Shown here piece by piece: positions 20,311 through 58,055 of a stretch of 64,000 nucleotides of DNA (position 1 is the stretch's first letter; every line of letters starts with the position of its first letter). Both the position numbers and the translations under genes were made by a program. Under the pieces are notes generated by a model. It made no database searches and was not told the origin of the DNA. It was given only the letters and a program-made list of their open reading frames with translations. Source of the stretch: an uncultured Candidatus Rokubacteria bacterium (lineage in GTDB: Bacteria; Methylomirabilota; Methylomirabilia; Rokubacteriales; CSP1-6). The stretch is from contig CAVXJS010000011.1 of NCBI GenBank assembly GCA_963762145.1, positions 672,001-736,000 of the forward strand. The letters are read 5' to 3'.

Positions 20311-21123
20311 TTACTTCGAGACCTGCACCGTGCCCTTCATGTTGGGGTGCAGCGCGCAGCTGTAGTTGAAGACGCCCTCGTCCTTGAAGGTCAGGGACGC
20401 GTTCTGGCCCTTCAGCAGGAATCCCGTCTTGAGCGGCGTGCCCGCCACCGTGACCTGGTGCGGCGACTCATCCGTGTTGGTCCAGGTGACGGTCTTGCCC
20501 GGGGCGACCGTGATGCCGGGAGGGCCGAAGGTGAAGGCGCCGATGTTCACGCCGATGGACCCCGCGGGCGCCGGCGCCGCGCTGGCCACCATGGTCCGGC
20601 CCGCCAGCGCCGGGTACGAGATCACGTAGTCGATCTGATCGTGGGGCTTGTGGCACTGGAAGCACGCCTTGTAGTTGGCCTTGTCGTTGAACTTGCCGTC
20701 CGCCCCGAAGGCCGAGTACTCCCACTCCCCGTTGCGGATGTCGTCCCCGTACTCCGTGCCCCAGCCGGTGCGCTTCTCCATGACGGTGTAGGCGATCAGG
20801 TCGCCCTTCAGGAAGCGGCCCTTGGCGTCCTTGAGCGGGTTGCCCTGAGCGTCCACCTGGGCCTTGTACTGGACCAGGGTGAGGACGGTGCCGCTCGGGA
20901 GCGGCTTGCCTTCCTTGGCCGCCTGGACGGCGGCGGCCGGGCTGGCGTAGAGCTCGCGGTACTGTTTGACGTCATACCGGTCCGCAATGGTGTAGAGCAC
21001 CCCGTCCTTGTAGTTGGCCGGGAACACGATCTTTTCCGGTCCCGCGCTGCTCCGCGAGGCCACCGCGGCCAGCGCGGCCAGGACCAGGGTCACCACGACG
21101 AGCCCGAGAACCCGTTTGCTCAT
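20311..21123 (-). CDS. Cytochrome P460/c'-beta-fold domain fused to C-terminal cupredoxin (amicyanin/plastocyanin-like)
   Basis: Signal peptide; FPANYK, LPSGTVL, VMEK, NGEWEYS, CFQCH heme motif; then FGP..ITV.PG.TVTWTN.D..PH and YSCALHPNMKG. Confidence 0.85.
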   Translation of the reverse strand: MSKRVLGLVVVTLVLAALAAVASRSSAGPEKIVFPANYKDGVLYTIADRYDVKQYRELYASPAAAVQAAKEGKPLPSGTVLTLVQYKAQVDAQGNPLKDAKGRFLKGDLIAYTVMEKRTGWGTEYGDDIRNGEWEYSAFGADGKFNDKANYKACFQCHKPHDQIDYVISYPALAGRTMVASAAPAPAGSIGVNIGAFTFGPPGITVAPGKTVTWTNTDESPHQVTVAGTPLKTGFLLKGQNASLTFKDEGVFNYSCALHPNMKGTVQVSK

Positions 21124-21206
21124 ATCCCCTCCGTGTGCGGGCGTGATTGGACGTTCTGAGGACTCTACGGGCGAGGCGGCCGCCCGGACGTCACAACCGT
21201 GTGAAT

Positions 21207-21620
21207 TCATCGCCGGCCGTGAGCGCTCTCCGACTGGGTGGGGAGCAGGGAGACGTGGCTGTGGACGGCCAGCCACCGGCCGTCCCGCCGGGCGAGGTTG
21301 AACGTGGCGCGGCCGTGCCGCGTGAAGGGCTTCCCGTCGGGGCCGGTGGCCTCAGACGCCCAGGTCGCGGCGACCCAGGCCGAGTCGCCGGCACCCCCGG
21401 CGTCCGGATGCGCGTCGAAGCGAAAGCCCCGGATGCGCGGCCAGATCTGGCGCCACTGCTCGCGCTCGATGTTGTCGAGCCCGTGAACCGCGGTCGCGTA
21501 GGTGCCGAAGGCCACCGCGTCCGGGGCGAAGAGGCGGCGCCCCGCCGCGAAGTCCTGTCCGCGGCACGCGGCCTCGAACGTGGCCAGCCACTCGAGCGCT
21601 TCCGATCGGGCGTCGGACAT
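21207..21620 (-). CDS. SnoaL-like/NTF2 family protein
   Basis: LFAPDAVAFGT, GRATF, WLAVHSHVS. Confidence 0.85.
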   Translation of the reverse strand: MSDARSEALEWLATFEAACRGQDFAAGRRLFAPDAVAFGTYATAVHGLDNIEREQWRQIWPRIRGFRFDAHPDAGGAGDSAWVAATWASEATGPDGKPFTRHGRATFNLARRDGRWLAVHSHVSLLPTQSESAHGRR

Positions 21621-35015: not shown

Positions 35016-35633
35016 ATGAGGATAGTCCGAAGGGAAGTTCTGAGGATTGGCGGCGACCTCGCGGTCGAGTTCGCCAACACGGTCTTCTCCCCGACGGATC
35101 CCGGCGGGTCGCTCCATTCGTGGAGTGACCTCATCGACTTCCTCGAGCTGCGGGGAGGCCTGGCGCCCGGCGACGGCGCCATGCTCCGGGCGATGGGGGC
35201 GACGGACGCCCGTCGCTGCGCCGGGGCTTTCGCGCAGGCCCTGGCGCTCCGCGAGACGATCCGCGCCATGCTCGGGGCCATGGCCAGTAGACGACTCCTG
35301 CGTGCCGGGTGGATCGCCGAGGTCAACGAGGCGCTTGCGGCCGGGGTCGGCGCGCCCCGATTGATCCGCCAGGACGGCGGCTGGCGCCTCGGCCTCTCGC
35401 CGGGTCTGGCCGCGCCCCCCCAGGCCCAGGCCCCGATCGCGCGCGCCGTGGCCGACCTGGTCGTGTCGGGCCGCGGGGTCGAGATCGGCAAGTGCGCCAA
35501 CCCACGGTGCGTGCTCTACTTCCGGGACCGGTCCCGGACCCGCCGCCGCCGCTGGTGCTCGATGGCCGTCTGCGGCAATCGGATGAAGGTGGCCGCCCAC
35601 GTGCGCCGCCACGGCCGCCGCCGCTCCGCCTAG
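35016..35633 (+). CDS. CGNR zinc-finger/ABATE domain protein
   Basis: LAVEFANT; CANPRC..F.D.SR...RRWCSMAVCGNRMKV. Confidence 0.92.
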   Translation: MRIVRREVLRIGGDLAVEFANTVFSPTDPGGSLHSWSDLIDFLELRGGLAPGDGAMLRAMGATDARRCAGAFAQALALRETIRAMLGAMASRRLLRAGWIAEVNEALAAGVGAPRLIRQDGGWRLGLSPGLAAPPQAQAPIARAVADLVVSGRGVEIGKCANPRCVLYFRDRSRTRRRRWCSMAVCGNRMKVAAHVRRHGRRRSA

Positions 35634-35645
35634 CCTGCTTTGCCC

Positions 35646-35695
35646 TTGACAGGTCACCGGGCCGGAGGCAGGCTATGGTCCGACCAGCCGACCAG
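35646..35695 (+). promoter_or_regulatory. Promoter region with FadR-type operator upstream of the oxidoreductase operon
   Basis: TTGACA at 35646; TGGTCCGACCA at 35676-35686 followed by an extra GACCA half-site. Confidence 0.6.
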
Positions 35696-35728: not shown

Positions 35729-36934
35729 ATGGCTCACTTCACCTGCGAGGTCGTCTACCGCGGCATCTTCCAGAAGAACCTGGCCGCGCGCATCTGCCGC
35801 GGCATCGTCCTCTCCGCACGGAAAGCCGGGCGGTGGGGGATCGCCTTTGGACGATACGGGGACAGTCCGCAGCGTAACGGCATCCCGGCCAAGGACTTCG
35901 CGATCGTCGCGGACACGCAGGAAGAGCTCGAGCAGAACATGGCGCGCTACGAGCCCAAGGAGGTGGACGTCACGATCTGCGTGGACGACACGCTCTCGAA
36001 GGGCGTGGAGTCCTGGGCCTGGTACGGGCTCCAGCCGATCAACCGGCTCACCATCTCGGGCGGCACGCTCCTGATGACCTCGCTCCAGAGCCCGGCCGCG
36101 CTGCTCAAGGACATCCACAAGAAGGACGCCCCCTACAATCTGGCCCTCATGCGGGCGAAGGCGTCCTTCTCCGGCCTCTGGGTCTACAAGGAGGATCACA
36201 CCGAGGCCCGCATCCTGGGCGCCCTCGCCAAGATCCAGCCCGAGTTCCTGTCGCTTGACGCGGTCTGCGAGGCCATCAAGGAAGCCGAGTGGGGCTCCGA
36301 CCTCAAGGTGGCTTCGGCCCGCAAGGCCCACGAGCGGCTCGAGACCCAGCCGATCAAGATCACCGAGGGCAACTCGGAGATCCCGTACTCCTTCGAGATG
36401 CCCAAGTGGTGGGAGATGCGGGAGGGCGTGACCATCCCGGCCATCCCCATCGGCAAGCCGATGGAGGGAGGCAAGGGGTACGTGCCGGAGCGCAACCCGT
36501 ACTTCAAGAAGTTCACCACCCGCACCATGCGGCCGGTGATCGACTTCGACAAATGCGTGAAGTGCACCCTCTGCTGGATCCAGTGCCCCGACTCCTGCTT
36601 CGACGTGACCCCGGACGGCCTCTACGACGCCAACATGGAGTCCTGCTGCGGCTGCGGTGTCTGCGAGGCGGTGTGCCCGGCCAAGGACTGCGTCACCATG
36701 GTGCGCGAGGACGCCTTCGAGGACAATGCGAGCCAGTGGGAGATGTGGCGGACCGACAAGGCCACCTACAAGACCTGGATGACCGACAAGATCCACAGCA
36801 AGGAGCACATCACCCGGTCCCACGGCTTCCGCTTCCGCGGCCAGTACGAGGAAGAGATCAAGAAGGAGCTGGAGTCGGGCGGCATCGAGATCACCGCGGG
36901 CATTCCCGGCGAGAACGCCGACTCGAAGAAGTAG
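35729..36934 (+). CDS. 2-oxoacid:ferredoxin oxidoreductase gamma/delta fusion subunit (oxalate oxidoreductase delta-like)
   Basis: Divergent gamma domain lacking GRGGQG, plus 2x[4Fe-4S] (CVKCTLCWIQCP; CCGCGVCEAVCP). Confidence 0.85.
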   Translation: MAHFTCEVVYRGIFQKNLAARICRGIVLSARKAGRWGIAFGRYGDSPQRNGIPAKDFAIVADTQEELEQNMARYEPKEVDVTICVDDTLSKGVESWAWYGLQPINRLTISGGTLLMTSLQSPAALLKDIHKKDAPYNLALMRAKASFSGLWVYKEDHTEARILGALAKIQPEFLSLDAVCEAIKEAEWGSDLKVASARKAHERLETQPIKITEGNSEIPYSFEMPKWWEMREGVTIPAIPIGKPMEGGKGYVPERNPYFKKFTTRTMRPVIDFDKCVKCTLCWIQCPDSCFDVTPDGLYDANMESCCGCGVCEAVCPAKDCVTMVREDAFEDNASQWEMWRTDKATYKTWMTDKIHSKEHITRSHGFRFRGQYEEEIKKELESGGIEITAGIPGENADSKK

Positions 36935-36949
36935 GGGAGGACTGAGACC

Positions 36950-38178
36950 ATGGCAGTCGAGACCAAGCCCGCAGGAGCGGTCGCCGATCACAAGGAGATG
37001 CTCATCTCCGGCAGCGAGGCGTGCGCCGAGGCGCTGACCCTCGCCGACATCGACGTGGTGACCGCGTACCCGATCCGGCCCTACGACACGGTCATGCAGG
37101 CCATCGCCAAGAAGATCGCCAACGGCCAGCTCGAGGCCGAGTACATCGTCGCCGAGGGCGAGCACAGCCAGTTCGAGATCGTCAAGCACGCCTCCACGGT
37201 CGGCGCGCGCGTGTTCTGCGGCTCGTCCGGCGTCGGCTGGATGTACGCGATGGAGTGCCTGACCGTCACCCCGCCGCTGCGCGTGCCGATGGTGTGCATG
37301 GTGGGCAACCGGGCCCTCGACGACCCGGGCGCCTTCGGCGTCGAGCACAACGACGCGCTGGTCGTCCGTGACCTCGGCTGGATGCTGATCTGGGTCGACA
37401 CGGCCCAGGAGATGCTCGACACGACCCTGCTCGCCTACCGCATCGCCGAGGACCGGCGGGTGTTCCTGCCCATCGCGATCTCGGCGGACGGCGCGTTCCT
37501 GACCCACTCGCAGGCGATCTGCCAGGTGCCGACCCGGGGGCTGGTGGACAAGTTCCTCCCGCGCTACGACCGCGGCGACCTGCAGCTGCACCCGGACAAC
37601 CCGATCACGGTGGCGCCCCAGGCCAACGAGGACTGGGTCATCGAGATCCGGCGGCAGAACGACGAGGCCATGAAGCGGGCCACCAGCGTGATCGAAGAGG
37701 CCTACGCTGATTTCGGAAAGTCATGGGCCGCGGTCCCGAGAACCCGTGGTTCGAGGAGTACATGACCGAGGACGCGGAGATCATCCTGGTCGGCATGGGC
37801 ACGATCTCGCTGCCGATGAAGGTCGGCATCCGCAACATGCGGGCCCAGGGCAAGAAGGTCGGCCTGGTGCGGCCGCGGTGGTTCCGCCCGTTCCCGACCG
37901 ACCGGATGGTGAAGGCGCTCTCGAAGGCCTCGGCGATCGGGGTCATCGACCGCGACTACTCCTTCGGCTCGCCATTCAACTCGGGGGTGGTCGCCAATGA
38001 GATCCGGGCCGCGATGTACAATGCGGACAAGCGCCCGCCGCTCCTGAGCTTCATCTGCGGCCTGGGCGGCCGCGAGGTCACCCTGGAGGATGTCGCGAAG
38101 GCGGCGGACATGTGCTACGCGGCCGCGAAGGCCGGCAAGTCGGATCCCAAGACCCACTGGCTGGGCGTGCGCGAGTAG
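36950..38178 (+). CDS. 2-oxoacid:ferredoxin oxidoreductase alpha subunit, oxalate oxidoreductase-like (single frameshift near 37715)
   Basis: AYPIRPY, EGEH, GSSGVG, then DAEIILVGMG, WFRPFP, GLGGRE in another frame. Confidence 0.88.
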
Positions 38179-38199
38179 CGCGAGCGAGAGGAGAGCCAC

Positions 38200-39210
38200 A
38201 TGGCCGATACCGCATTCACGAACGCGACGCAGATCCTGGAGCCCTTCAAGGGCGTCAAGAAGGTCACGATCGAGGAGTACTTCACCTCCGGCCACCGCAC
38301 CTGCCAGGGCTGCGAGTCGGCCCTGGTGATGAAGCTCATGGTCAAGGCGGCGGGCCCGCGCACGATCGTGCTCGGCTCGACCGGCTGCATGTACGTGGCC
38401 AACACCACGTACTACACGACCCCGTGGGTGGTGCCGTGGATGCACACCCAGCTCGGCTCCTCGGGCTCCGCCGCCCTCGGCACCGCGGCCGGGCTCAAGG
38501 CGCTGATGAAGAAGGGCAAGATGAAGTCGGAGCCGATCAACGTCATCGCGTTCTGCGGCGACGGCGGCGGCGCCGACATGGGCCTGGGCGCCATCTCCGC
38601 GACGCTGACCCACAGGGAGTACAACTCGCTGATCCTGATGTACGACAACGAGTCGTACGCCAACACCGACATCCAGCTCTCGGGCTCCACGCCGTACGGC
38701 GCGAACACCACGTTCAGCCCGCCGGGCTCGGTCAAGCGCATCATCCACACCCGCTGGAAGAAGAACACCGCGGGCATGCTGGCGGCCGGGCACCCCGAGT
38801 GCCGGTACGTGGCGACCGTCGATGCCTCCTACGCGGTCGAGATGATGAACAAGGTCCGCAAGGCGCTCACCATCGGCGGGCCGACCTTCATCCACTCGCT
38901 CGACCCGTGCCCGAAGGGCTGGGACTACGACCCGATGCTCTCCCACGAGCTGGGCGAGCTGGCTGTCGAGACCGGTATCTTCCCGCTCTACGAGGTGGAG
39001 GACGGCGTGGTGCGGCACTACGGCAAGACGAAGGCGATCGTCGAAGGCCGTCCGCGCAAGCCGGTTCGCGAGTACCTGCTCAAGCAGGGCCGCTTCGCCC
39101 ACTTCACCGAGGAAGACCTCGACTACTTCCAGTCCAAGGTGGACGAGATGTGGGACAAGTGGGAGATCCCGGGCGTGATCCCGTTCTGGAAGGAGCGCCC
39201 CGGCAACTAG
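38200..39210 (+). CDS. 2-oxoacid:ferredoxin oxidoreductase beta subunit (TPP-binding)
   Basis: GHRTCQGC, TGCMYVANT, GDGG..DNESYANT, PCPKGW. Confidence 0.92.
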   Translation: MADTAFTNATQILEPFKGVKKVTIEEYFTSGHRTCQGCESALVMKLMVKAAGPRTIVLGSTGCMYVANTTYYTTPWVVPWMHTQLGSSGSAALGTAAGLKALMKKGKMKSEPINVIAFCGDGGGADMGLGAISATLTHREYNSLILMYDNESYANTDIQLSGSTPYGANTTFSPPGSVKRIIHTRWKKNTAGMLAAGHPECRYVATVDASYAVEMMNKVRKALTIGGPTFIHSLDPCPKGWDYDPMLSHELGELAVETGIFPLYEVEDGVVRHYGKTKAIVEGRPRKPVREYLLKQGRFAHFTEEDLDYFQSKVDEMWDKWEIPGVIPFWKERPGN

Positions 39211-39260
39211 CGGTCCGCAGCACCAGCAGCGACGCCCAACCCCGACCACAAGGAGGGGAC

Positions 39261-40250
39261 ATGACCCGTCACGGTCGACGCCTCGCGGCGCTGGTCCCGG
39301 CCATCCTGGCCGTCGTATTTCTCTGCTCCCCGGCACAGGCCTGGGAGCCGAGCAAGCCCATCGAGTTCGTGATCCCGGCCGGCACCGGCGGGGGCGCCGA
39401 CCAGATGGCGCGTCTGATTGCGGGCATCGTCGAGAAGCACCGGCTCTCGCCGCGCCCGTTCATCGTGGTCAACAAGTCGGGGGGGGCGGGCGCGGAGGGC
39501 TTCCTCCACGTGAAGGGCAAGAAGGGTGACGCCCACACGATGATCATCACGCTCTCCAACCTCTTCACGACGCCGCTCCACACCGGGGTGCCCTTCGGCT
39601 GGAAGGATCTCACCCCGATCGCGCGCATGGCGCTCGACGAGTTCATCCTGTGGGTGAACGCGGAGACGCCCTACAAGACCGCCAAGGAGTACGTCGCGGC
39701 GGCGAAGGAGCGCTCGGGCGGGGACCGCATGAAGATGGCGGGGACCGGCTCGGCCCAGGAAGACCAGATCCTCACCATCCAGCTCGAGCAGGCCACCGGG
39801 GTGAAGTTCACCTACGTGCCCTTCAAGGGGGGCGGCGAGGTGTGCGTGAACCTCGTCGGCAAGCACGTGGACTCGACGGTCAACAATCCCATCGAGTGCG
39901 CCAGCCACTGGAAGGCGGGGCGGGTGCGCCCGCTGGCCGTCTTCGACACCGCGCGGATCACGGTGCCGGAGTGGAAGGACATCCCGACCGTCAAGGAAGC
40001 GCTCGGCGCGGACATCAGCTATCTGATGCTGCGCGGGATCTTCGGTCCTCCCGACATGCCGAAGGACGCGCTGGAGTGGTACCAGGCCCTGCTGAAGAAG
40101 GTCTACGAGTCCGCCGAGTTCAAGGACTACCTCAACCAGGGGGCCCTCAAGCCTGCCTGGGAGACCGGCCCCGAGTTCGTGCAGTGGCTCGGCCAGGCCG
40201 AGCAGCTTCATCGAGACCTGATGACGAAAGGCGGCCTGCTGAAGAAGTAA
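39261..40250 (+). CDS. tctC: Tripartite tricarboxylate transporter substrate-binding protein (TctC/Bug)
   Basis: Signal peptide, P.KPIEFVIP..GGGAD..AR, VVNKSGGAG, YVPFKGGG. Confidence 0.92.
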   Translation: MTRHGRRLAALVPAILAVVFLCSPAQAWEPSKPIEFVIPAGTGGGADQMARLIAGIVEKHRLSPRPFIVVNKSGGAGAEGFLHVKGKKGDAHTMIITLSNLFTTPLHTGVPFGWKDLTPIARMALDEFILWVNAETPYKTAKEYVAAAKERSGGDRMKMAGTGSAQEDQILTIQLEQATGVKFTYVPFKGGGEVCVNLVGKHVDSTVNNPIECASHWKAGRVRPLAVFDTARITVPEWKDIPTVKEALGADISYLMLRGIFGPPDMPKDALEWYQALLKKVYESAEFKDYLNQGALKPAWETGPEFVQWLGQAEQLHRDLMTKGGLLKK

Positions 40251-40261
40251 CCGTCCCCCGC

Positions 40262-40723
40262 ATGCGGACCGCCGACCTGACGACGGCGCTGATCCTAATG
40301 GCCGGGGGCCTCCTGGTGATCTGGGACGCCCTGCGCCTCGGGATCGGCTGGGGGACCGACGGCCCGCAGAGCGGGTTCTTCCCGTTCTGGCTCGCGGTGC
40401 TGCTCCTCGCATCCTGCGCGGCCATCGCGCTGCAGGCCTGGCGGCGGTCGAGCTCCGCCCCCTTCGTCACCCGGCAACGACTCGCGCCCGTCTTGACCAC
40501 GCTGCTGCCCGCGACCGGCTTCGTGGTGCTGACCCAGTTCATCGGGCTCTACGTGGCCACCTGCGCCTTCATGGCCCTGTACATGCGCTGGATCGGCCGC
40601 TACCCGTGGCTGGCGGTGATCTCGGTGAGCGTGCTCTTTCCGCTGGTGACCTTCGTGGTGTTCGAGAAGTGGTTCCTCGTGCCGATGCCCAAGGGTCCGC
40701 TCGAGGCCTGGCTGGGCTACTGA
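40262..40723 (+). CDS. tctB: TTT small membrane subunit
   Basis: Four TM helices, GPQSGFFPF, FLVPMPKG. Confidence 0.88.
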   Translation: MRTADLTTALILMAGGLLVIWDALRLGIGWGTDGPQSGFFPFWLAVLLLASCAAIALQAWRRSSSAPFVTRQRLAPVLTTLLPATGFVVLTQFIGLYVATCAFMALYMRWIGRYPWLAVISVSVLFPLVTFVVFEKWFLVPMPKGPLEAWLGY

Positions 40724-40726
40724 TTC

Positions 40727-42247
40727 GTGGGATTCGAGAATCTGCTCCTCGGCTTCCAGGTGGCGCTGCAGCCCTACAATCTCGGGCTCGCGGTCCTCGG
40801 CATCACCCTCGGCACCATCATCGGGGTGCTGCCCGGGCTCGGCGGAGCCAACGGCGTCGCGATCCTGCTCCCGCTCACCTTCTCGATGGCCCCGACCTCC
40901 GCCATCATCCTGCTCACGAGCCTCTACTGGGGCGCTCTCTTCGGCGGAGCGATCACCTCGATCCTCTTCAACATCCCGGGGGAGCCGTGGTCGGTGGCCA
41001 CCACCTTCGACGGCTATCCGATGGCGCGGAACGGGCAGGGTGGGGAGGCGCTCACCGCCGCCTTCACGTCGTCGTTCGTCGGCGCGCTCTTCTCGGTCAT
41101 CCTGATCACCCTCTTCGCCCCGATCCTGGCCGAGATCGCGCTGAAGTTCGGGCCCCCCGAGTTCTTCGCGATCCAGCTCCTGACCTTCTCGTCGTTCATC
41201 GGCCTGGGCGGGGGCAACCCGATCAAGTCGCTGGTATCCATCCTGCTGGGCTTCATCCTGGCCTCGGCCGGTCTCGACATCGTGACCGGGCAGCTTCGCC
41301 TGACCTTCGGAATCACCGAGCTGATGAAGGGCTTCGACTTCATCGTGGCCGTCATCGGCCTCTTCGGGGTGGGCGAGATCCTGCTCTCGGTGGAGGAAGG
41401 ACTGTCCTTCCGCGGGGTGAAGGCCGCCATGAACCCGCAGGTGGTCTGGCAGACGTGGAAGAGGCTGCCGCGCTACTACCGCACGTTCATCCGCAGCGCC
41501 TTCATCGGCTTCTGGATGGGCTTCAAGCCGGGTGGGGCCACCCCCGCGTCGTTCATGAGCTACGCCTTCGCCAAGCGCTTCTCCCGGCACCCCGAGCGGT
41601 TCGGCAAGGGCGAGATCGAGGGCGTGGTGGCGCCGGAGACCGCGGCCCACGCGGCGGGAGGCGCGTCCCTGCTGCCCATGATCACCCTGGGCATTCCGGG
41701 CAGCCCCACCGCGGCGGTGATGCTGGGCGGGCTCATCATCTGGGGCCTCCAGCCGGGGCCCATGCTGTTCCGCGAGCGGCCCGACTTCGTCTGGGGCCTC
41801 ATCGCGAGCATGTACACCGGCAACGTGATCGGGGTGCTGATGGTGCTGGCCTTCGTGCCGCTCTTCGCGGCCATCCTCCGGATCCCGTTCCCGATCCTGA
41901 CCCCGCTCATCATCGCGGTCTGCGCGGTGGGCTCCTACGCCGTCCACGACAGCATGGTGGACATCTGGTATATGCTGCTGTTCGGTGTGATTGGCTATGT
42001 GTTCAAGAAGCTCGACTACCCTCTCGCCCCGCTGGTCCTGGCGCTCGTGCTCGGCGATCTGGCCGAGAACGCCCTGCGCCAGAGCCTGATCATGTCGCAG
42101 GGCTCGCTCCTGATCCTGTTCACGCGGCCCATCGCCGGCGCCATCAGCGCGGTGGCCATCTTCTTCTTCGCGCTGCCGCTGCTCGCTCCCTACTGGCGGC
42201 GCCGTCGGGCCCAGGACGAGACGCCCGCGGCGGCGGCGCGGCACTAG
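40727..42247 (+). CDS. tctA: TTT large permease subunit
   Basis: GVLPGLGG, NIPGE..SVATTFDGYPMA, GVVAPETA, TLGIPGS, GLQPGP. Confidence 0.94.
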   Translation: MGFENLLLGFQVALQPYNLGLAVLGITLGTIIGVLPGLGGANGVAILLPLTFSMAPTSAIILLTSLYWGALFGGAITSILFNIPGEPWSVATTFDGYPMARNGQGGEALTAAFTSSFVGALFSVILITLFAPILAEIALKFGPPEFFAIQLLTFSSFIGLGGGNPIKSLVSILLGFILASAGLDIVTGQLRLTFGITELMKGFDFIVAVIGLFGVGEILLSVEEGLSFRGVKAAMNPQVVWQTWKRLPRYYRTFIRSAFIGFWMGFKPGGATPASFMSYAFAKRFSRHPERFGKGEIEGVVAPETAAHAAGGASLLPMITLGIPGSPTAAVMLGGLIIWGLQPGPMLFRERPDFVWGLIASMYTGNVIGVLMVLAFVPLFAAILRIPFPILTPLIIAVCAVGSYAVHDSMVDIWYMLLFGVIGYVFKKLDYPLAPLVLALVLGDLAENALRQSLIMSQGSLLILFTRPIAGAISAVAIFFFALPLLAPYWRRRRAQDETPAAAARH

Positions 42248-42268
42248 GCGGCTGACCGGAGACTCCGA

Positions 42269-42963
42269 ATGGATCTGGATTTCCTGATCGGTATCGGCAA
42301 GATCGTGCTCATCGACCTGGCCCTGGCCGGCGACAACGCCCTGGTCATCGCCCTCGCGGTGCGCACGCTGCCCCCCGCCAGCAGCTCCAGGGCCGTATCT
42401 GGGGCACCGTCGGCGCGGTGGGGCTGCGGCTGGCCTTCATCTTCATCGTGACCTACCTCCTCGCCATCCCCCTGCTGCAGGTCGTGGGCGGGCTGCTGCT
42501 CGTCTGGATCGCGCTCAAGCTCGTGCTCCAGACGGATGCGCACGGCGGCGAGAGCGTGAAGCAGGGCACGACGCTGCTCGGGGCCATCTGGGTCATCCTC
42601 GTGGCCGACGTCGTCATGAGCCTCGACAACGTGATCGGGGTCGCCGCCGCCGCCGAGGGCGACATGCGCCTGGTCGTCTTCGGCATCGCGCTGTCCATCC
42701 CGATCGTGGTCTGGGGGTCCGGGGTGCTGGCCCGGCTGATGAACCGGTACCCGTGGATCATCCTGGTGGCGGGCGGCATCCTGGGCGAGGTGGCGGGCAA
42801 GATGATGCTGCACGACCAGTTCATCGTGAGCCGGTTCGGCAACTCGCCCGACGCGGTGGAGTTCGCGCTGCGCATTGGCCTCGCGATCGCCATCATGCTG
42901 GTGGGCTGGCTGGTCACGCGCCGGCGGGCCGCGGTGGCGAACGACGGGGCCGCCGCACGGTGA
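42269..42963 (+). CDS. TerC/YjbE family membrane protein (frameshift in C-run near 42371)
   Basis: IDLALAGDNALVIALAVR, ADVVMSLDNVIGVAAAA, GIALSIPIV. Confidence 0.88.
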
Positions 42964-43724
42964 GCTCGGCCGGCGAGGGGCCGAGTCTCGAGCCGGTCAA
43001 GTCCACCCGGATCTACGAGGAGATCGTCCGCCAGGTCAAGCAGCTCATCGGGGAAGGGCGGCTCAAGTCCGGTGACCGCCTTCCGCCCGAGCGGGACCTG
43101 GCCGAGAAATTCATGGTGAGCCGCACCTCGGTGCGGGAGGCGCTCCGGGCGCTGCAGAGCCGCGGCCTCATCGAGATACGGGCGGGAGAGGGCGCCTTCA
43201 TCCGCGACGTCTCGGTGGAGACGCTGATCGAGCCGCTGGCCCTGGTCATCTTGCCGCATCGCGAGGCGGTCGGCGAGCTCTTCGAAGCCCGCCGGCTGCT
43301 GGAGCCCGCCATCGCGGCCCTCGCCGCGCGGCGGGCGACGCGCGAGGAGATCCAGGAGATGGAGCGCATCCTGGAGGACCAGGCCAAGGAAGTGGCGGCC
43401 GGCCGGACCGGGATGCTCCAGGACGGGGCGCTCCACGCGGCCATCGCCAACAGCGCCCACAATCGCGCCATCACCCGCATCGTGAACGCCCTGATGGATC
43501 TGCTCACCCAGAGCCGCGAGGAGTCGTTGCACACGCCCGGCCGGCCGACGCGGTCTCACGAGGACCATCGCCGCATCCTGGAAGCGGTGCGCCGGCGCGA
43601 CGAGGTGGCGGCTCATCGCTCGATGCTCGACCACCTCATCGCGGTGGAGACCCTGGTGACCGGAGCCCATGCCGACGATCGGAGCGCGACGCCCGTCGCC
43701 CCCAGGAGAAAGCCGCGCCCCTGA
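42960..43724 (+). CDS. FadR/GntR family transcriptional regulator (PdhR/LldR/GlcC-like)
   Basis: GDRLPPERDLAEKFMVSRTSVREALRAL..G.GAF, FCD domain with conserved His. Confidence 0.93.
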   Translation: MSSAGEGPSLEPVKSTRIYEEIVRQVKQLIGEGRLKSGDRLPPERDLAEKFMVSRTSVREALRALQSRGLIEIRAGEGAFIRDVSVETLIEPLALVILPHREAVGELFEARRLLEPAIAALAARRATREEIQEMERILEDQAKEVAAGRTGMLQDGALHAAIANSAHNRAITRIVNALMDLLTQSREESLHTPGRPTRSHEDHRRILEAVRRRDEVAAHRSMLDHLIAVETLVTGAHADDRSATPVAPRRKPRP

Positions 43725-43788: not shown

Positions 43789-43861
43789 GGCTGATTAACG
43801 CAGGCCCACAGGTGGGCCTGTGTCTTTTTCTCTGCCACCGAATCGCTCAGGGGGTCCTGTG

Positions 43862-46687
43862 ATGGCGCAGGCCGGAAGTCGGAAGAGCGCGCGACAGCGC
43901 GCTGCCCGTCCGTCCAGCGCCACGCCCAAGTACGTGTACTCCTTCTCCGGCGGCAAGGCGGAGGGGTCGAGCGCGATGCGCGACCTGCTCGGCGGCAAGG
44001 GCTGCGAGCTGGCCGAGATGACCAAGATGGGCGTGGCGGTCCCCCCCGGCTTCACGGTCACCACCGAGGCGTGGGCCGCCTACGACGCGGCGGGGAAGAA
44101 GCACCCGACCGGCCTCTGGACCCAGGTGATGGCCCACCTGGCCCGCCTCGAGGCCGCGGCGGGCAGCCGACTGGGCGATCCGGTGCGGCCGCTGCTGGTC
44201 TCGGTCCGGTCCGGGGCGCGCGTCTCGATGCCCGGCATGATGGACACCGTGCTGAACCTGGGGCTCAACGACAAGTCGGTCGAGGGGCTCGCGGCGCGGA
44301 CCCGGAACGAGCGCTTCGCCTGGGACTGCTACCGCCGCTTCATCACGCTCTTCGGGGACGTGGTGCTCTCCATCGATCGGCACACCCTGGACGCGCTTCT
44401 CGAGACCGCGAAGACGCGCGCGGGGGCCAAGACGGATGCCGACCTTCCGCCCGCGGCGCTACGGGAGCTGGTCGCGGAGCTGAAGAAGGTCGTGCAGGCC
44501 AAGACGGGCCGGCCGTTCCCGCAGGATCCGCACGAGCAGCTCCGGCTGGCCATCAACGCGGTCTTCGAGTCCTGGTGGGCCAAGAAGGCGGTGGACTACC
44601 GGCGCATCCATCGCCTGCCCGACAACTGGGGCACCGCGGTGACCGTCATGGCGATGGTCTTCGGCAATCTCGGGTCGACCTCGGGGACCGGGGTGTGCTT
44701 CTCGCGCGATCCGTCGAGCGGCGAGCGGCGCTTCTTCGGCGAGTTCCTCGTCAACGCCCAGGGTGAGGACGTCGTGGCGGGGATCCGCACCCCCGAGCCG
44801 ATCGAGGCCCTCAAGACGCGCATGCCCGCGGTGTACCGCGAGCTCACCGCGATCAAGGATCGGCTCGAGCAGCACTACCGCGACATGCAGGACATCGAGT
44901 TCACGGTGCAGGAGGGAACGCTCTACATCCTGCAGACGCGCTCCGGAAAGCGGACGGCGGCGGCGGCGGTGCGCATCGCGGTGGAGATGTTCGAGAAGGA
45001 GAAGCGCCTCGATCGGGACACCGCGCTCCTGCGGGTCGAGCCGGCCTCGCTCCACCAGCTGCTCGTCAAGACGGTGGACCCGAGCGCCCGCTACACCGCC
45101 ATCGCCACGGGTCTCCCCGCCACCCCGGCCGCGGCGGTGGGGAAGGTGGTGTTCGATCCGGAGAGGGCGGTGGACATGGCCCTCCGGGAAGAGGCGGTCA
45201 TCCTGGTGCGCGCGGAGACCTCGCCGGAGGACGTGGCGGGCATGCACGCCGCGCAGGGCGTGCTCACCTCGCGCGGCGGCCTGACGTCCCACGCGGCGGT
45301 GGTGGCACGCGGCTGGGGCAAGTGCTGTGTGGTCGGCGCGGGCGACGTGGTGGTGGACGAGGAGAACCGTCTGTTCCGGGCCGGGCGCGCGGTCGTGCGC
45401 GAGGGGCAGGTGGTCACGCTCAACGGGGCCACCGGCGAGGTGATCGTGGGCGCCCAGCCGCTCGTGGACCCCAAGCTCTCCGGCGAGTTCCGGAAGCTCC
45501 TCGGCTGGGCCCAGGAGCGCGCGACCACCACGGTTCGCGCCAACGCGGACACGCCCGCGGACGCGGTCAAGGCCCGGGAGTTCGGTGCGGTGGGCATCGG
45601 CCTGGTCCGCACCGAGCACATGTTCTTCGGGGACCAGCGCATCCCGATCGTGCGCGACATGATCATGGCGAGCGACGTCCAGGCCCGGAAGAAGGCGGTC
45701 GACCAGCTGCTGCCGTTCCAGCGCGAGGACTTCATCGGCATCTTCCGGGTCATGGCGCCGTACCCGGTGACGATCCGGCTGCTGGACCCCCCGCTGCACG
45801 AGTTCCTCCCGAAGTACAAGGAGGTGCTCGAGGAGTACACGCGGCTCGACGCCCGCGGCTTCAACCCGGAGCGCCACTCCGAGCTGGGCGCGATCAAGGC
45901 CCGGCTGGAGTCGCTCCTCGAGGCGAACCCGATGCTGGGCCACCGCGGCTGCCGGCTCGGCATCACGTTCCCCGAGATCTACGACATGCAGGTGCGGGCC
46001 ATCATGGAAGCGGCCTGCGCGGTGGCGGCGGAGGGCGTGACGGTGGAGCCCGAGATCATGATCCCGCTCACCGGCACGGTGGCCGAGATGAAGCTGACGC
46101 GCGAGATGACCGACCGCGTGGCCCGGCAGGTGCTCTCGGAGACGGGGCGGAAGGTCGCGTACTCGGTCGGCACCATGATCGAGGTGCCCCGCGCGGCGCT
46201 GATCGCGGACCGCATCGCGCAGTACGCCGAGTTCTTCTCGTTCGGCACCAACGACCTGACCCAGATGACGTTCGGGTACAGCCGGGACGATATCGGCAAG
46301 TTCCTGCCCTACTACCTCGAGAAGAAGCTGCTGCCGAACGATCCCTTCGCGGTGCTCGACCAGGACGGGGTGGGAGAGCTGGTGCGGGTCGGCATCGAGC
46401 GCGGCCGGCAGGCGGTGCCCACGCTGAAGGTGGGCATCTGCGGTGAGCACGGCGGGGAGCCCTCGTCGGTAGAGTTCTGCCATCGCGTCGGGATGACCTA
46501 CGTCTCCTGCTCCCCCTACATGGTGCCGGTGGCGTGGCTCGCGGCGGCCCAGGCCGAGATCAAGGGGCCCCGGCCCGAGCACGCCGAGGCGCGCTCGAAG
46601 GCGAGCCGAGCAAATACAAGAAAAGCAGTCACGGTAGCAGCACGCGGAGCAACACGAACAGGCCGGAAAAGGAGACACACGCGGTGA
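43862..46687 (+). CDS. ppdK: Pyruvate phosphate dikinase
   Basis: [71 protein letters not shown]. Confidence 0.97.
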
Positions 46688-48438
46688 AGCTTTCAGGCGC
46701 CCGGATCGTCCTCGAGTGCATCAAGCGGGAAGGCGTCGATCTCATCTTCGGTCTGCCGGGCGGCGCGGTCCTGCCGATCTACGACGCCCTGTACGACTTC
46801 GAGGGCCTGCGCCACGTCCTGGTACGGCAGGAGGCCGCCGCCGGGCACGCGGCGGAAGGGTACGCGCGGACATCCGGCAAGGTCGGCGTCTGCCTCGTCA
46901 CCTCCGGGCCGGCCGCGACCAACCTGGTCACCGCGCTCCAGGACGCCCTGATGGATTCGATCCCGATCGTGGCCTTCACCGGGCAGGTGCCGACCACCTC
47001 GATCGGCAACGACGCGTTCCAGGAGGCCGACAACGTCGGCATCACCCGCTCGGCCACCAAGCACAACTTCCTGGTGAAGGACGGCAAGGACCTGGCCCCG
47101 ATCATCAAGGAGGCGTTTCACATCGCCTGCACCGGGCGCCCGGGGCCGGTCCACGTGGACCTCCCGAAGGACATCCTGGTCAAGGAGTGGACCTTCGAGT
47201 ACCCCGAGCGCGTGCACCTGCGCTCGTACAACCCGACGTACGAGGGGCACCCCGGGCAGATCAAGAAGGCGGCCCGCTCGATGGTGCGAGCCAAGCGGCC
47301 GGTGCTCTACGTGGGCGGCGGCGCGATCTCCTCGGACGCCTCGCCCGAGCTGCGGGAGCTGGCGGACCTGACCCAGATCCCGCTCACCCAGACCCTCATG
47401 GGCCTGGGCTCGTTCCCGATGGCCGATCCGCTCTCGCTCGACATGCTCGGCATGCACGGCACCTACTACGCCAACATGGCGGTGCACCACTCGGACTGCC
47501 TGGTGGCGGTGGCGGCGCGCTTCGACGACCGGGTGACCGGACGGGTCGACATGTTCTCGCCGAACGCGGAGATCATCCACATCGACATCGATCCCTCGTC
47601 GATCTCGAAGAACATCAAGGTGGACATCCCGATCGTGGGCGACTGCAAGCGCGTGCTGCGCCGGCTGGTGGAGGCGGTCCGCGAGGAGCTGAAGGACGGG
47701 GTCCCGGCCGCGGTGACCGAGGGCCGGCGCCAGTGGGCCGCGCAGATCGCGGACTGGAAGCGCGACTTCCCGCTGCGCTACGACTGGGACGACGACGTGA
47801 TCAAGCCCCAGTACGTCATCCAGGAGCTCTCGAATCTGACCCAGGGCGAGGCCTACGTGGTCACCGGGGTGGGCCAGCACCAGATGTGGGCCGCCCAGTA
47901 CTACCGCTTCAAGCACCCGCGCCGCTGGTGCACGTCGGGCGGCCTCGGCACCATGGGCTACGGGCTGCCCACCGCGATGGGGGTGCAGGCCGCGCATCCG
48001 GGCAAGCTGGTGGTCAACATCGACGGCGACGGCTCCTTCGCCATGAACAGCCAGGAGCTGGCAACCTGCTTCACCGAGAACCTTCCGGTCAAGACCATCA
48101 TCATCAACAACAGCGGGCACGGGATGGTGCGGCAGTGGCAGCGGATCATCTACAAGGAGCGGTTCTTCGCCATCGACCTGCCCGGCATCCCGGACTGGGT
48201 CAAGCTCGCGGAGGCGTACGGCTGTGTGGGCCTGCGCGTCACCAAGCCGAGCGAGGTGGTGCCCGCGCTCGAGAAGATGCTGAGCACGCCGGCCCCGGTG
48301 GTCCTGGACGTCTGCGTGGACAAGGACGAGTGCGTGTTCCCGATGGTGCCGGCGGGCGGAGCCAACAAGGACATGATCTTGTCGCTGCCGACCCGCGAGG
48401 CGGCAGAAAAAGCCGCCAAGACCCAGACCGGGTTCTAG
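46684..48438 (+). CDS. ilvB: Acetolactate synthase large subunit
   Basis: [59 protein letters not shown]. Confidence 0.95.
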
Positions 48439-48447
48439 GAGCGCGCG

Positions 48448-49032
48448 GTGGCCGATACGAGCAAGCATACGATCGCGGTGCTGGTGGAGAACAAGTTCGG
48501 CGTGCTGTCCCGCGTCGCGGGGTTGTTCTCCGCGCGCGGGTACAACATCGAGAGCCTGTCGGTCGGGGAGACCCTCGACCCGTCCGTCTCGCGCATGACC
48601 CTGGTGGTGCGGGGGGACGCCTTCGTCATCGAGCAGGTCATCAAGCAGCTGCACAAGCTGATCGACGTCATCAAGGTCACCGACCTCAGCGAGGAGAACC
48701 ACGTGGAGCGCGAGATGCTCCTGCTGAAGGTCAATGCCGAGCCGGCGAATCGCGCCGAGATCCTCCGCCTGGGCGACATCTTCCGGGCCAAGGTGGTGGA
48801 CGTGACGCCCACCGCCTACACCCTCGAGGTCACGGGAGAGGAGTCCAAGATCGAGGGCATCATCGATCTCCTGCGGCCCTTCGGGATCCAGGAGATCGTC
48901 CGCACCGGCAAGGTGGCCATCGCGCGGGGCCCCAAGACCCGGCTGCGCAAGGTGGAAGAGCGGCTCGGCAAGTCCCGCGAGACGCCCCGTCCGCCGAACG
49001 ACGATCCGAAGGTGGTCGGGTTCGCGGACTGA
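48448..49032 (+). CDS. ilvN: Acetolactate synthase small subunit
   Basis: VENKFGVLSRVAGLFSARGYNIESL ACT domain. Confidence 0.95.
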   Translation: MADTSKHTIAVLVENKFGVLSRVAGLFSARGYNIESLSVGETLDPSVSRMTLVVRGDAFVIEQVIKQLHKLIDVIKVTDLSEENHVEREMLLLKVNAEPANRAEILRLGDIFRAKVVDVTPTAYTLEVTGEESKIEGIIDLLRPFGIQEIVRTGKVAIARGPKTRLRKVEERLGKSRETPRPPNDDPKVVGFAD

Positions 49033-49071
49033 TTTCCCACGAAGGAAACCGAGAGAAAGGCACGAGGAACC

Positions 49072-50076
49072 ATGCCGGCCAAGATCTTCTACGACCAGGA
49101 CGCTGACCTGGGCCTGCTGCGCGGCAAGACCGTCGCCATCATCGGCTACGGCAGCCAGGGGCACGCCCACGCCTTGAACCTGAAGGACTCCGGCCAGAAC
49201 GTGGTGGTCGGCCTCTACAAGGGCTCGAAGAGCTGGGCCCGGGCCGAGAAGGACGGGCTCAAGGTCACCACCGTGAACGACGCGGCCGCCGCGGGCGACA
49301 TCGTGATGATCCTGCTGCCCGACCAGACCCAGCGGCAGGTCTTCGAGGAGTCCATCAAGGGTGTCATGACCAAGGGCAAGATGCTGATGTTCGCCCACGG
49401 CTTCAACATCCACTTCAACCAGGTGGTGCCGCCCCCCGATGTGGACGTCTCGATGATCGCGCCCAAGGCGCCCGGCCACGTGATGCGCGACCTCTTCACG
49501 CAGGGGCCGGGCGTGCCGGGCCTGGTCGCGGTCTACCAGGACGTCTCGGGCAAGGCGCGGGATCTGGCGCTGGCCTACGGCAAGGGCGTCGGCTGCACGC
49601 GGGCGGGCGTGATCGAGACCACTTTCAAGGAAGAGACCGAGACCGACCTCTTCGGGGAGCAGACCACGCTCTGCGGCGGCGTCTCCCACCTGATCAAGGC
49701 GGCCTACGAGACGCTCGTCGAGGCGGGGTACCAGCCCGAGGTCGCGTACTTCGAGTGCATGCACGAGATGAAGCTGATCGTAGATCTCTTCTACCAGGGC
49801 GGCCTCGCCTACATGCGCTACTCGGTGTCCGACACCGCGGAGTACGGCGACTACACCCGCGGGCCGCGGATCATCGATGACCGGACCAAGCTGGAGATGA
49901 AGAAGATCCTCTCCGAGATCCAGTCGGGCCAGTTCGCGCGCGAGTGGGTGCTGGAGAACCAGGCCCACCGCGCCGGCTTCCTCGCCATGCGCAAGCGGGA
50001 CGCCGAGCATGGGATCGAGGAAGTGGGTGGCCGGCTGCGCAAGATGATGGCGTGGATCAAGCCTCCGCGGGAGTGA
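49072..50076 (+). CDS. ilvC: Ketol-acid reductoisomerase
   Basis: [43 protein letters not shown]. Confidence 0.97.
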
Positions 50077-53721: not shown

Positions 53722-54509
53722 ATGGGCGAGGCTGGGCGCACCGTCCGGCTCGACGCTCGCCTACGAGGGCACGGACCTGCACGGCTGGCAGGTGCAGCCG
53801 GGGCTCGCCACCGTGCAGGGCCTCCTGATGGAGGCGGCCGCGCGGGTGCTGGGCGGGCCCGTGAAGATCACCGGAGCGAGCCGGACCGACGCGGGCGTGC
53901 ACGCGCTTCGACAGGTCGCGAGCCTCTCCATCTCATCCGCGGTCGCCCCGGCGGCGCTGCACCGCGCGCTGAACGCCCTGTTGCCTCCCTCGGTGCGCGT
54001 GCTCGACGTGCGCGAGGCGCCCGCCGGCTTCGACGCGCGCCGCTGGGCGCGCGGGCAAGCGCTACGCCTACCTGATGGATCGCGGCCAGCAGGCCGATCC
54101 GTTCCTGCGGCGCCACGCGTGGCATACGCCGTTCCCGCTCGACGTGGACGCGATGGCGGCGGGGCTCGCGCTCGTGCGCGGCAAGCACGACTTCAGCGCC
54201 TTCTGCGCCGCGGCGGGCCGCGATCGCACGCCCACCTGCACGATCACGTCGGCGCGGGTGGTGGCCCGGCACGAGCGTCTGGCGATCTGCCTCTCCGCCG
54301 ACAGCTTCCTGCACCACATGGTCCGCAACATCGTCGGGAGCCTGGTCGAGGTCGGACGGGGCGCTCGGCCGCCCGGGTGGATCGGCGAAGTCGTGGACGG
54401 GCTGGACCGGAGGCGGGCCGGACCGACCGCGCCGGCCCAGGGGCTCGTGCTGGTCCGGGTCCTGTACGGTCCCGTCACGGGGCCTCGGGCACTGGGAGGC
54501 GCCGGGTGA
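53722..54509 (+). CDS. truA: tRNA pseudouridine(38-40) synthase (two frameshifts, near 53752 and 54055)
   Basis: LAYEGT..GWQ.Q, ASRTDAGVHA, GKHDFSAF, FLHHMVRNIVG, TAPAQGL. Confidence 0.9.
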
Positions 54510-54864: not shown

Positions 54865-54893
54865 TTGACACTGGTCTGACCAGTGCCTAGAAT
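54865..54893 (+). promoter_or_regulatory. Sigma70 promoter of the fdh operon with a FadR-type palindromic operator in the spacer
   Basis: TTGACA-17nt-TAGAAT; CACTGGTC-T-GACCAGTG perfect palindrome at 54869-54885. Confidence 0.75.
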
Positions 54894-57900: not shown

Positions 57901-58055
57901 AGACCCACCAGATCGGCATCCCGTGGCACTGGGGCTACAACGGCATCTCCAAGGGCGACATCACCAACGATCTCTCCGCGACGGTGGGAGACCCGACGGT
58001 CTACATCCAGGAGACCAAGGCCTTCCTCTGCAACGTGAAGAAGGGGGAGGTGTAG
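54945..58055 (+). CDS. fdnG: Selenocysteine-containing formate dehydrogenase alpha subunit (FdnG/FdoG-type, Tat-exported); UGA at 55521-55523 = Sec
   Basis: SRRDFLK; CPYCAVGC..LCPKG; HQARV-U-HSATV..FGRGAMT in one continuous frame; ALRGHANVQGATD; FPEHYEP. Confidence 0.93.
55535..55553 (+). promoter_or_regulatory. Bacterial SECIS element
   Basis: GGUCCCAGCUCUGGGGACC hairpin starting exactly 11 nt after the UGA, as in E. coli-type SECIS. Confidence 0.8.

Follow-up and report, generated by a model that had tools for sequence, protein, structure and literature searches.

Oxalate oxidoreductase (OOR; EC 1.2.7.10) of the acetogen Moorella thermoacetica is built from three chains (PDB 5C4I, 5EXD and 5EXE), in which the α chain contains domains I and II, domains III and V are fused into a single δ chain, and the β chain forms domain VI. 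According to the part of the OOR literature drawn on here (PMC5020499), the canonical motif of the 2-oxoacid:ferredoxin oxidoreductases (OFORs) is YPITP, whereas OOR carries a unique YPIRP motif whose arginine, Arg31, binds the negatively charged substrate; the same source describes Arg31 and Asp116 as important for the bait-and-switch mechanism of OOR, and Arg109 as the only substrate-site residue that OOR has in common with other OFORs. An OOR-like operon was analyzed in a 64,000-nucleotide stretch of DNA (hereafter the window; positions 672,001 to 736,000 of contig CAVXJS010000011.1, assembly GCA_963762145.1) from an uncultured Candidatus Rokubacteria bacterium. The operon occupies the plus strand at window positions 35729–42247 as a tight row of six genes that encode a fused γδ subunit, an α subunit, a β subunit and the three components of a TctCBA transporter. 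We consider, at a probability of roughly 0.6, that the enzyme is a coenzyme A (CoA)-independent oxalate:ferredoxin oxidoreductase variant in an uncharacterised sister clade of the Moorella OOR.

The enzyme is by its sequence a member of the OFOR superfamily, and its predicted thiamine diphosphate (ThDP) site and three predicted [4Fe-4S] cluster sites are complete. The β subunit (38200–39210, + strand; 336 residues) consists of the ThDP-binding domain VI (PF02775, 6.9e-14) with a GDG...N ThDP motif, and it provides the cysteines of the proximal [4Fe-4S] cluster. It contains the motifs SGHRTCQGC and STGCMYVANT, and residues C35, C38, C63, C237, G120-D121 and N150 are invariant in an alignment of relatives. 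The α subunit (36950–38178, +) is composed of domains I and II (POR_N PF01855, 6.2e-54; PFOR_II PF17147, 4.5e-30) and carries the motifs AYPIRPY and GNRALDDPGAFGVEHND. The γδ subunit (35729–36934, +; 401 residues) combines a divergent domain III with a ferredoxin domain V for two [4Fe-4S] clusters and ends in a conserved tail of ∼70 residues. Two CxxCxxCxxxCP ferredoxin motifs are located in γδ residues 276–317, and their cysteines (C276/C279/C282/C286 and C306/C309/C312/C316) are invariant in an 11-sequence alignment, as is the Y10–K16 segment (YRGIFQK). This segment belongs to the N-terminal sequence MAHFTCEVVYRGIFQKN, which includes YRGIFQKN where GRGGQG would be expected. The canonical GxGGQG motif was not found in γδ, and the Pfam POR domain (PF01558) matched neither the γδ protein nor its gene when the genome was searched in all six frames. 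From these two absences, we infer that the enzyme probably works independently of CoA.

Each subunit resembles OOR more closely than any other protein of known structure. The best PDB match is 5c4i for α (8.7e-57 for domain I and 3.2e-28 for domain II), 5c4i_C for β (1.1e-88) and the OOR δ chain for the δ part of γδ (1.3e-17), and the resemblance of domain III to OOR is barely detectable in sequence (E = 0.0047). An AlphaFold model of γδ, generated from the 11-sequence alignment with a pLDDT of 65.7, retrieved OOR δ chains as its top eight Foldseek matches (best 5exe_E, E = 1.2e-18), followed by ordinary γ subunits (2raa, 1.5e-10). Among the NCBIfam models, the OOR equivalogs (NF045790 for δ, NF045791 for α and NF045792 for β) are the top match for every subunit. 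The enzyme thus shares with the Moorella OOR its three-chain plan, the YPIRP arginine and the Arg109 equivalent, the TGCMYVAN segment of β, a domain III that lacks GxGGQG, the ThDP site and the three [4Fe-4S] sites. It differs in the length of its fused chain, which has 401 residues including the conserved tail, compared with 315 in the Moorella δ chain.

The phylogenetic position of the enzyme was addressed with a maximum-likelihood tree of 41 β sequences. No Moorella sequence is on the tree, and the near-OOR group is therefore defined by NCBIfam score. The tree sets an OOR-like superclade apart from the PorB and VorB representatives with a support of 100/99. Inside the superclade, the window's subclade 1 and a second subclade form one clade (100/100) that is sister to a group consisting of the near-OOR sequences and subclade 3, an environmental group of the P0289 type that scores 417–442 bits on the OOR β model. 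Subclade 2, which comes from metagenomes and is represented by P0125, is 60–66% identical to the window in β, 58–64% in the N-terminal part of α and 41–48% in γδ, with a GC content of 0.56–0.71 across ten loci. A first-pass annotation of the sequence had placed the enzyme in the OOR clade, a view that clustering with canonical PFOR or VOR enzymes would have contradicted. The enzyme does not cluster with either, and both its place in the broad superclade and the best match of every subunit, together with the δ-chain fold of the γδ model, agree with the earlier placement in this broad sense; the enzyme itself falls outside the group that reaches the OOR cut-off. No description of the sister clade was found in the open literature searched, a scope that leaves aside subscription journals and supplements.

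Within the clade, the active site combines retained and altered features of OOR. In the HMMER alignment of the α subunit to PDB 5c4i_A, R43 corresponds to OOR Arg31, R121 to Arg109 and A128 to Asp116. The loop around the last of these positions reads RTLDPPGDFGEEH in OOR and RALDDPGAFGVEH in the window, so that LDPPGDFGEEH with Asp116 is replaced by LDDPGAFGVEH without it. Relative to OOR, the loop carries the substitutions Asp116 to Ala, Glu119 to Val and Pro113 to Asp, and both arginines are retained. Conservation counts were taken from tblastn alignments that had not been pre-selected by pattern, and they refer to the α genes that cover each site. YPIRP is present in all 68 subclade-1 α genes and in 60 of 61 subclade-2 genes, the other one having FPIRP. 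All 70 genes of subclade 1 and all 62 of subclade 2 have the same 14-residue loop, NRALDDPGAFGVEH, and alanine accordingly occupies the Asp116 position in 132 of 132 α genes. The loop sits inside a 19-residue invariant run (V118–A136) in an eight-sequence α alignment in which the subclades are otherwise 53–56% identical. Because it is invariant across two subclades that have diverged to this degree, the altered loop appears to be a selected feature of the clade and not a product of decay. Since it differs from the Moorella loop, the electrostatic step that drives catalysis would have to be achieved in another way. The clade amounts to a natural experiment on the bait-and-switch mechanism, in which the 'bait' arginines are kept and the 'switch' aspartate is swapped for an equally invariant loop.

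Most of these active-site readings had been made in the first-pass annotation. The YPIRP arginine, the fusion of the γ and ferredoxin domains with YRGIFQKN in place of GRGGQG, the GHRTC and TGCMYVANT segments of β, the loop DDPGAFGVEH set against an OOR loop given as DPPGDFGEEH, and the apparent replacement of the catalytic aspartate by alanine all stand in the sequence, and alignment to the OOR structure bears out the last two. That annotation overlooked a one-base frameshift in α. The α gene is not one open reading frame (ORF) in the assembly but is split into 36950–37765 and 37723–38178; the frame of domain I runs into a foreign tail that stops at 37765, and that of domain II, a different one, opens at 37723. 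In relatives, α occupies a single frame, and all ten relatives' loci that cover the site have one base more than the window around GATTTCGGAAAGTC, near 37711–37722. The missing base falls in a T run at 37711–37713 (T3 vs T4). The extra base is also present in 3/3 contig records that bridge the site, from four coded soil runs of three studies; these records come as contigs from related populations, for which no more than 0.71 of the sampled words are shared; they carry no depth or strand information and were used without their habitat labels. The two nearest bridging contigs (X1 and X4, with two other differences each) have a fourth T behind 37710, and the third (X7) has a G behind 37719.

The break in α is very probably a homopolymer error of the assembly and not the mark of a pseudogene, because relatives and contigs carry the extra base and because other genes are broken in the same manner. 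The housekeeping tRNA pseudouridine synthase gene truA (53723–54509) is split over two frames near 54040–54075, which indicates indel errors in the assembly. The TerC-family gene (42248–42963) is likewise split near 42370–42450, and many CoA-transferase matches in the genome, an assembly of 25 contigs, 6.26 Mb and 88% completeness, are broken into adjacent pieces. Were the one-base deletion real, the enzyme would be dead in this strain and the operon decaying, a consequence that concerns this genome only. The assembly as given does carry the frameshift, and the soil contigs, being from related populations, are not proven source reads of it. However, the deletion lies in a T run, the remaining operon is intact, β is 97–99% identical to its same-genus relatives, and the frameshifts of truA and terC and the other split genes form a pattern typical of assembly indels. 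A genuine deletion is thus improbable.

The clade is widespread in the sequence collections surveyed. β is 88–100% identical in 30 of the 41 genomes of the window's order, and two more contain partial or fragmented copies. At least 561 matching stretches were detected in one species-representative genome collection, and one word-indexed search yielded 2008 β proteins with E ≤ 1e-20 among its candidates. Among the 120 matches listed, all are at least 79% identical, the names given are pyruvate ferredoxin oxidoreductase, pyruvate synthase and thiamine-dependent enzyme, and the bins are assigned to NC10, Binatia, Armatimonadota, Alphaproteobacteria, Tectomicrobia and Terriglobales. The loci that were fetched are mostly labelled Candidatus Rokubacteria or Methylomirabilota, with a few from other phyla at 93–98% identity. 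Seven loci of this identity (L015, L017, L018, L021, L025, L027 and L034) are filed under Verrucomicrobiia, Limnocylindria, Acidoferrum, the archaeon Nitrosocosmicus, Gemmatimonadales, Thermodesulfobacteriota and Nitrospirae. Such labels on Rokubacteria-like contigs most likely reflect mis-binning, and phylum counts taken from the labels of metagenome-assembled genomes are therefore unreliable for this clade.

The public names raise the question of whether the enzyme is an ordinary pyruvate (or 2-ketoisovalerate):ferredoxin oxidoreductase that works with the nearby pyruvate phosphate dikinase (PPDK). Public records label close homologues 'pyruvate ferredoxin oxidoreductase beta subunit' or 'pyruvate synthase', and the PPDK gene is located four genes downstream and is syntenic. 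PorA and PorB are the second-best NCBIfam models, and the second-best PDB match is the pyruvate:ferredoxin oxidoreductase (PFOR) of Methanosarcina acetivorans (9bt4; α 1.2e-34, β 1e-59 and δ 3.6e-12), a four-subunit PorABDG enzyme of the archaeal type that belongs to the same superfamily and has the same cofactors. PFOR differs, however, in having separate γ and δ chains and a canonical POR γ domain. Its α chain reads aypitpq at the position of YPIRP, in line with the YPITP motif, whereas the γδ subunit of the window has neither GxGGQG nor a Pfam POR match. PFOR depends on CoA. The scores on the pyruvate models remain under their cut-offs (PorB, 287 bits vs 405; PorA, 208.7 + 109.5 vs 550), the β tree separates the clade from the PorB and VorB representatives, and the subclade-2 operon does not stand beside PPDK. 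Going by the title of Pierce et al. (2017), moreover, pyruvate reportedly inactivates the Moorella OOR. An ordinary PFOR is on these grounds highly improbable. As a separate observation, a KorA-type fused γ-α OFOR with canonical POR and POR_N domains is encoded ∼45 kb past the end of the window (G000:C11:781169-782518), and the genome therefore also owns a conventional 2-oxoacid:ferredoxin enzyme.

The transporter genes directly follow β. TctC (39261–40250, +) is a periplasmic solute-binding protein with a signal peptide (PF03401, 2.7e-28; best PDB match 4x9t, 1.1e-35), TctB (40262–40723, +) is the small membrane subunit (PF07331, 1e-17), and TctA (40727–42247, +) is the large membrane subunit (PF01970, 4.1e-153). 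The system thereby matches the tripartite tricarboxylate transporters (TTTs) in all three Pfam families and in the usual C-B-A order. Two further genes come next, encoding a TerC-family membrane protein that is frameshifted in the assembly (42269–42963, +; the N-terminal part in frame 42248–42451 and the remainder in frame 42256–42963) and a presumed repressor, a GntR-family regulator with an FCD ligand domain (42987–43724, +, start approximate; PF00392, 2.3e-21; PF07729, 3.6e-26) whose nearest NCBIfam models are NanR, LldR, PdhR and GlcC. The order pdxS-pdxT ... γδ, α, β, tctCBA, terC, gntR, PPDK is conserved in subclade 1, in which the gene after β is tctC in 70 of the 73 loci with at least 1.5 kb of downstream sequence and gntR in 2.

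In subclade 2, the same genes are found in other arrangements. The operon begins with an FCD-type gntR in 40/44 loci, and 19 of 80 loci have nearby tctCBA genes that are at least 55% (mostly ∼80%) identical to those of the window but differ in order and orientation. Two loci (L152 and L168) have the order tctCBA-terC-gntR-OFOR, so the tctCBA-terC-gntR block accompanies the enzyme in two gene orders. PPDK is syntenic with gntR in subclade 1 and is not next to the operon in subclade 2. The TerC gene is kept between tctA and gntR in both subclades. The earlier suggestion that the adjacent TctCBA supplies the enzyme is consistent with this synteny as far as a link between the two is concerned.

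The substrate assignment leans towards oxalate because of genomic context, namely the presence of OxlT, Frc, an Oxc-like enzyme and a formate dehydrogenase that shares an operator with the operon. The OxlT equivalog replaces tctCBA directly after β in two subclade-1 loci, L025 and L041 (476.5 and 457.2 bits vs a cut-off of 335). Of 80 subclade-2 loci, 11 carry an Frc equivalog (680–694 bits vs 504), 11 encode an adjacent Oxc/HACL-like ThDP enzyme and 3–4 carry OxlT (595 bits in L171), with at least one of the three present in 15; these counts are lower bounds because many of the loci are short. TctCBA may likewise carry oxalate, a suggestion drawn from its operon partner and from OxlT in the same position in the two relatives. 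A conserved block downstream of the subclade-2 operon in L131 (L131:9386-16306; similar in L125, L129, L142 and L168) encodes the Oxc/HACL-like ThDP enzyme, Frc, an ADP-forming acyl-CoA ligase and a bicupin, and it looks like a fuller oxalate island. The Oxc/HACL-like enzyme of this block has the 'acetolactate synthase' model as its best NCBIfam match, below the cut-off. The bicupin near some subclade-2 operons was considered as an oxalate decarboxylase and rejected, as it resembles Cupin_2 only weakly and matches no NCBIfam model.

The upstream region of the operon contains a predicted promoter and operator. A −35-like TTGACA hexamer at 35646–35651 (+) is followed by the palindrome TGGTCCGACCA at 35676–35686, which with an additional half-site, GCCGACCA, makes up a GntR-type operator at 35676–35694 (+), 43 nt before the start codon. 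The consensus operator of the FadR/FCD subfamily of GntR regulators is a palindrome of the TGGTnnnACCA type. In the 160 nt upstream of γδ, the TTGACA hexamer is present in 46 of 53 subclade-1 loci, the core GGTnnnACC in all 53 and the full TGGTnnnACCA in 39; full sites total 41 over 1.02 Mb of subclade-1 loci. In subclade 2, the palindrome lies upstream of gntR, just past the −10 region, in 37 of 40 loci. We infer that the syntenic GntR protein would bind this TGGTCnGACCA operator. The exact word TGGTCNGACCA occurs twice in the window, where 0.04 occurrences are expected, and at no third place in the 6.26-Mb genome.

The second occurrence, at 54872–54882, belongs to a promoter at 54865–54893 (+) that consists of TTGACA, c, TGGTCTGACCA, gtgcc and TAGAAT, with the two hexamers spaced by 17 nt and the operator placed between them, 62 nt before a formate dehydrogenase gene. 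This gene (54945–58055, +) encodes a Tat-exported molybdopterin large subunit (TAT_signal, Molybdop_Fe4S4, Molybdopterin and Molydop_binding) with an in-frame TGA at 55521–55523 for selenocysteine in the motif HQARVUHSATV. ORF callers break it into 54945–55523 and 55572–58055. An NrfD-like membrane subunit, FdhD and an FdhE-like gene follow it (to 61376). Six loci of relatives (L190, L191, L192, L199, L200 and L204) likewise have the operator before fdnG, and among 31 operator sites of relatives listed, 10 precede the OFOR operon and 7 precede fdnG. The formate dehydrogenase is a putative co-regulated partner of the operon. Further regulon members were sought at the other exact operator sites of relatives and rejected, these sites being beside genes for a radical SAM protein, an SBP_bac_5 protein, a HAD hydrolase or a U32 peptidase, or intragenic.

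Taken together, these features suggest a pathway in which oxalate would enter the cell through the co-transcribed TctCBA tripartite transporter and be bound by α between the two conserved arginines equivalent to Arg31 of YPIRP and Arg109. Oxalate would then add to ThDP on β with release of a first CO2. Two electrons would pass from the proximal cluster of β to the two clusters of the ferredoxin domain and on to an external ferredoxin, and the second carbon would be released as CO2 without CoA. The downstream FCD-type GntR protein may control, and presumably represses, the operon at the TGGTCnGACCA operator that overlies the promoter, and the same operator could put the periplasmic, respiratory selenocysteine formate dehydrogenase under common GntR control.

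Several observations weigh against the oxalate assignment. Every member of the clade has alanine where OOR has Asp116. Its scores lie below the OOR equivalog cut-offs in α (226.1 + 119.2 bits vs 500), β (349.2 vs 590) and δ (81.8 vs 230). On the β tree, the clade of subclades 1 and 2 has a long stem (0.77), and it is sister to, not part of, the group that reaches the OOR cut-off and holds P0385 (599 bits vs 590). No oxalate-specific gene was seen in the flanks of 78 of 80 subclade-1 loci and 65 of 80 subclade-2 loci, and the ThDP enzyme beside frc misses the Oxc cut-off (230 bits vs 739). Oxc and OxlT equivalogs were not found in the 88%-complete source genome, in which the best Frc-like gene scores 483 bits vs a cut-off of 504. 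The best solved relatives of TctC are uncharacterised or bind other acids; to our knowledge, oxalate is not an established substrate of any TTT, and in the literature searched, none of the papers that mention both appears to concern such transport. With regard to the operator, a reversed control word occurs at 5 places in the genome and the operator word is not enriched genome-wide over this control, and 14 of the 31 sites listed in relatives lie elsewhere than before the OFOR operon or fdnG. Since the operator is not enriched by count, the regulon argument rests on the positions of the sites.

Some of these points would equally suit an enzyme of the same fold and CoA-free chemistry that acts on another small acid, such as glyoxylate, oxamate, mesoxalate or another C2–C3 2-oxo or dicarboxylic acid, perhaps yielding formate instead of a second CO2. 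A switch loop that departs from OOR at three positions, Asp116 among them, and is invariant in two subclades points to a distinct, selected active site, and the sub-cut-off scores and the long separate branch are in keeping with one. The usual partner of the enzyme is a TTT system and not OxlT, and an operator in common with formate dehydrogenase would fit a reaction that yields formate. Nonetheless, the enzyme has retained the pair of arginines to which the two carboxylates of oxalate bind, the specific genes found in its context belong to oxalate metabolism (OxlT and Frc, both as equivalogs), and an oxalate regulon would be just as likely to include a formate dehydrogenase. A different substrate is on this evidence unlikely, and an oxalate:ferredoxin oxidoreductase variant remains the preferred assignment.

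Additional genes in the window were recognised around the operon. PPDK is followed by ilvB, ilvN and ilvC, and these genes together occupy 43820–50076. Directly upstream of the operon, an ABATE/CGNR zinc-finger regulator is encoded at 35016–35633 (+); it neighbours the operon in just 4 of the 53 subclade-1 loci with enough upstream sequence, and an ABATE gene also stands beside one subclade-2 operon (L179). The single ORF at 20311–21276 (−) encodes a cytochrome P460 domain fused to a plastocyanin/azurin-type copper domain, an unusual combination that is possibly linked to hydroxylamine or nitric oxide chemistry. A RACo-like protein with the linker, middle and C-terminal ASKHA parts is encoded at 14471–15694 (−) and may be truncated; no corrinoid protein was recognised among the scanned ORFs near it.

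The clade enzyme departs from the Moorella system in its setting as well as in its loop. The host of OOR is an acetogen, whereas the hosts of the clade are soil bacteria of the Rokubacteria type, and unlike the Moorella OOR, the clade enzyme has TctCBA and a GntR operator as its partners. The Oxalobacter-type pathway of OxlT, Frc and Oxc touches the clade through the Frc and OxlT genes (at equivalog level) and the Oxc-like enzyme that adjoin some of its members, but its chemistry, a CoA-dependent decarboxylation to formate, is unrelated to that of the clade enzyme. To the described systems, the window adds the coupling to TctCBA and its exchange for OxlT, the invariance of the loop in two subclades, the operator in common with a selenocysteine formate dehydrogenase and the caution over the broken α gene. 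Tentatively, and with more doubt than assurance, one may go further and view the clade as a new CoA-free, ferredoxin-linked oxidoreductase with an invariant loop of its own, not an OOR in the Moorella sense, with oxalate or a C2 acid related to it as the substrate and with hosts among soil bacteria that are not acetogens and are probably exposed to oxygen; it would be served by the first TTT of an oxalate type, belong to a GntR regulon with a periplasmic selenocysteine formate dehydrogenase, and provide a major soil oxalate route that is invisible to frc/oxc surveys.

Oxalate is among the most abundant organic acids released into soil by plants and fungi, and its bacterial breakdown is usually tracked by the marker genes frc and oxc. 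The conserved repressor–operator pair and the TctC protein offer cheap handles for identification of the substrate. If the clade does oxidize oxalate directly, a large share of the oxalate-degrading potential of soil would now be mislabelled as pyruvate metabolism, and the enzyme clade would represent a hitherto unnoticed means by which common soil bacteria oxidize oxalate.

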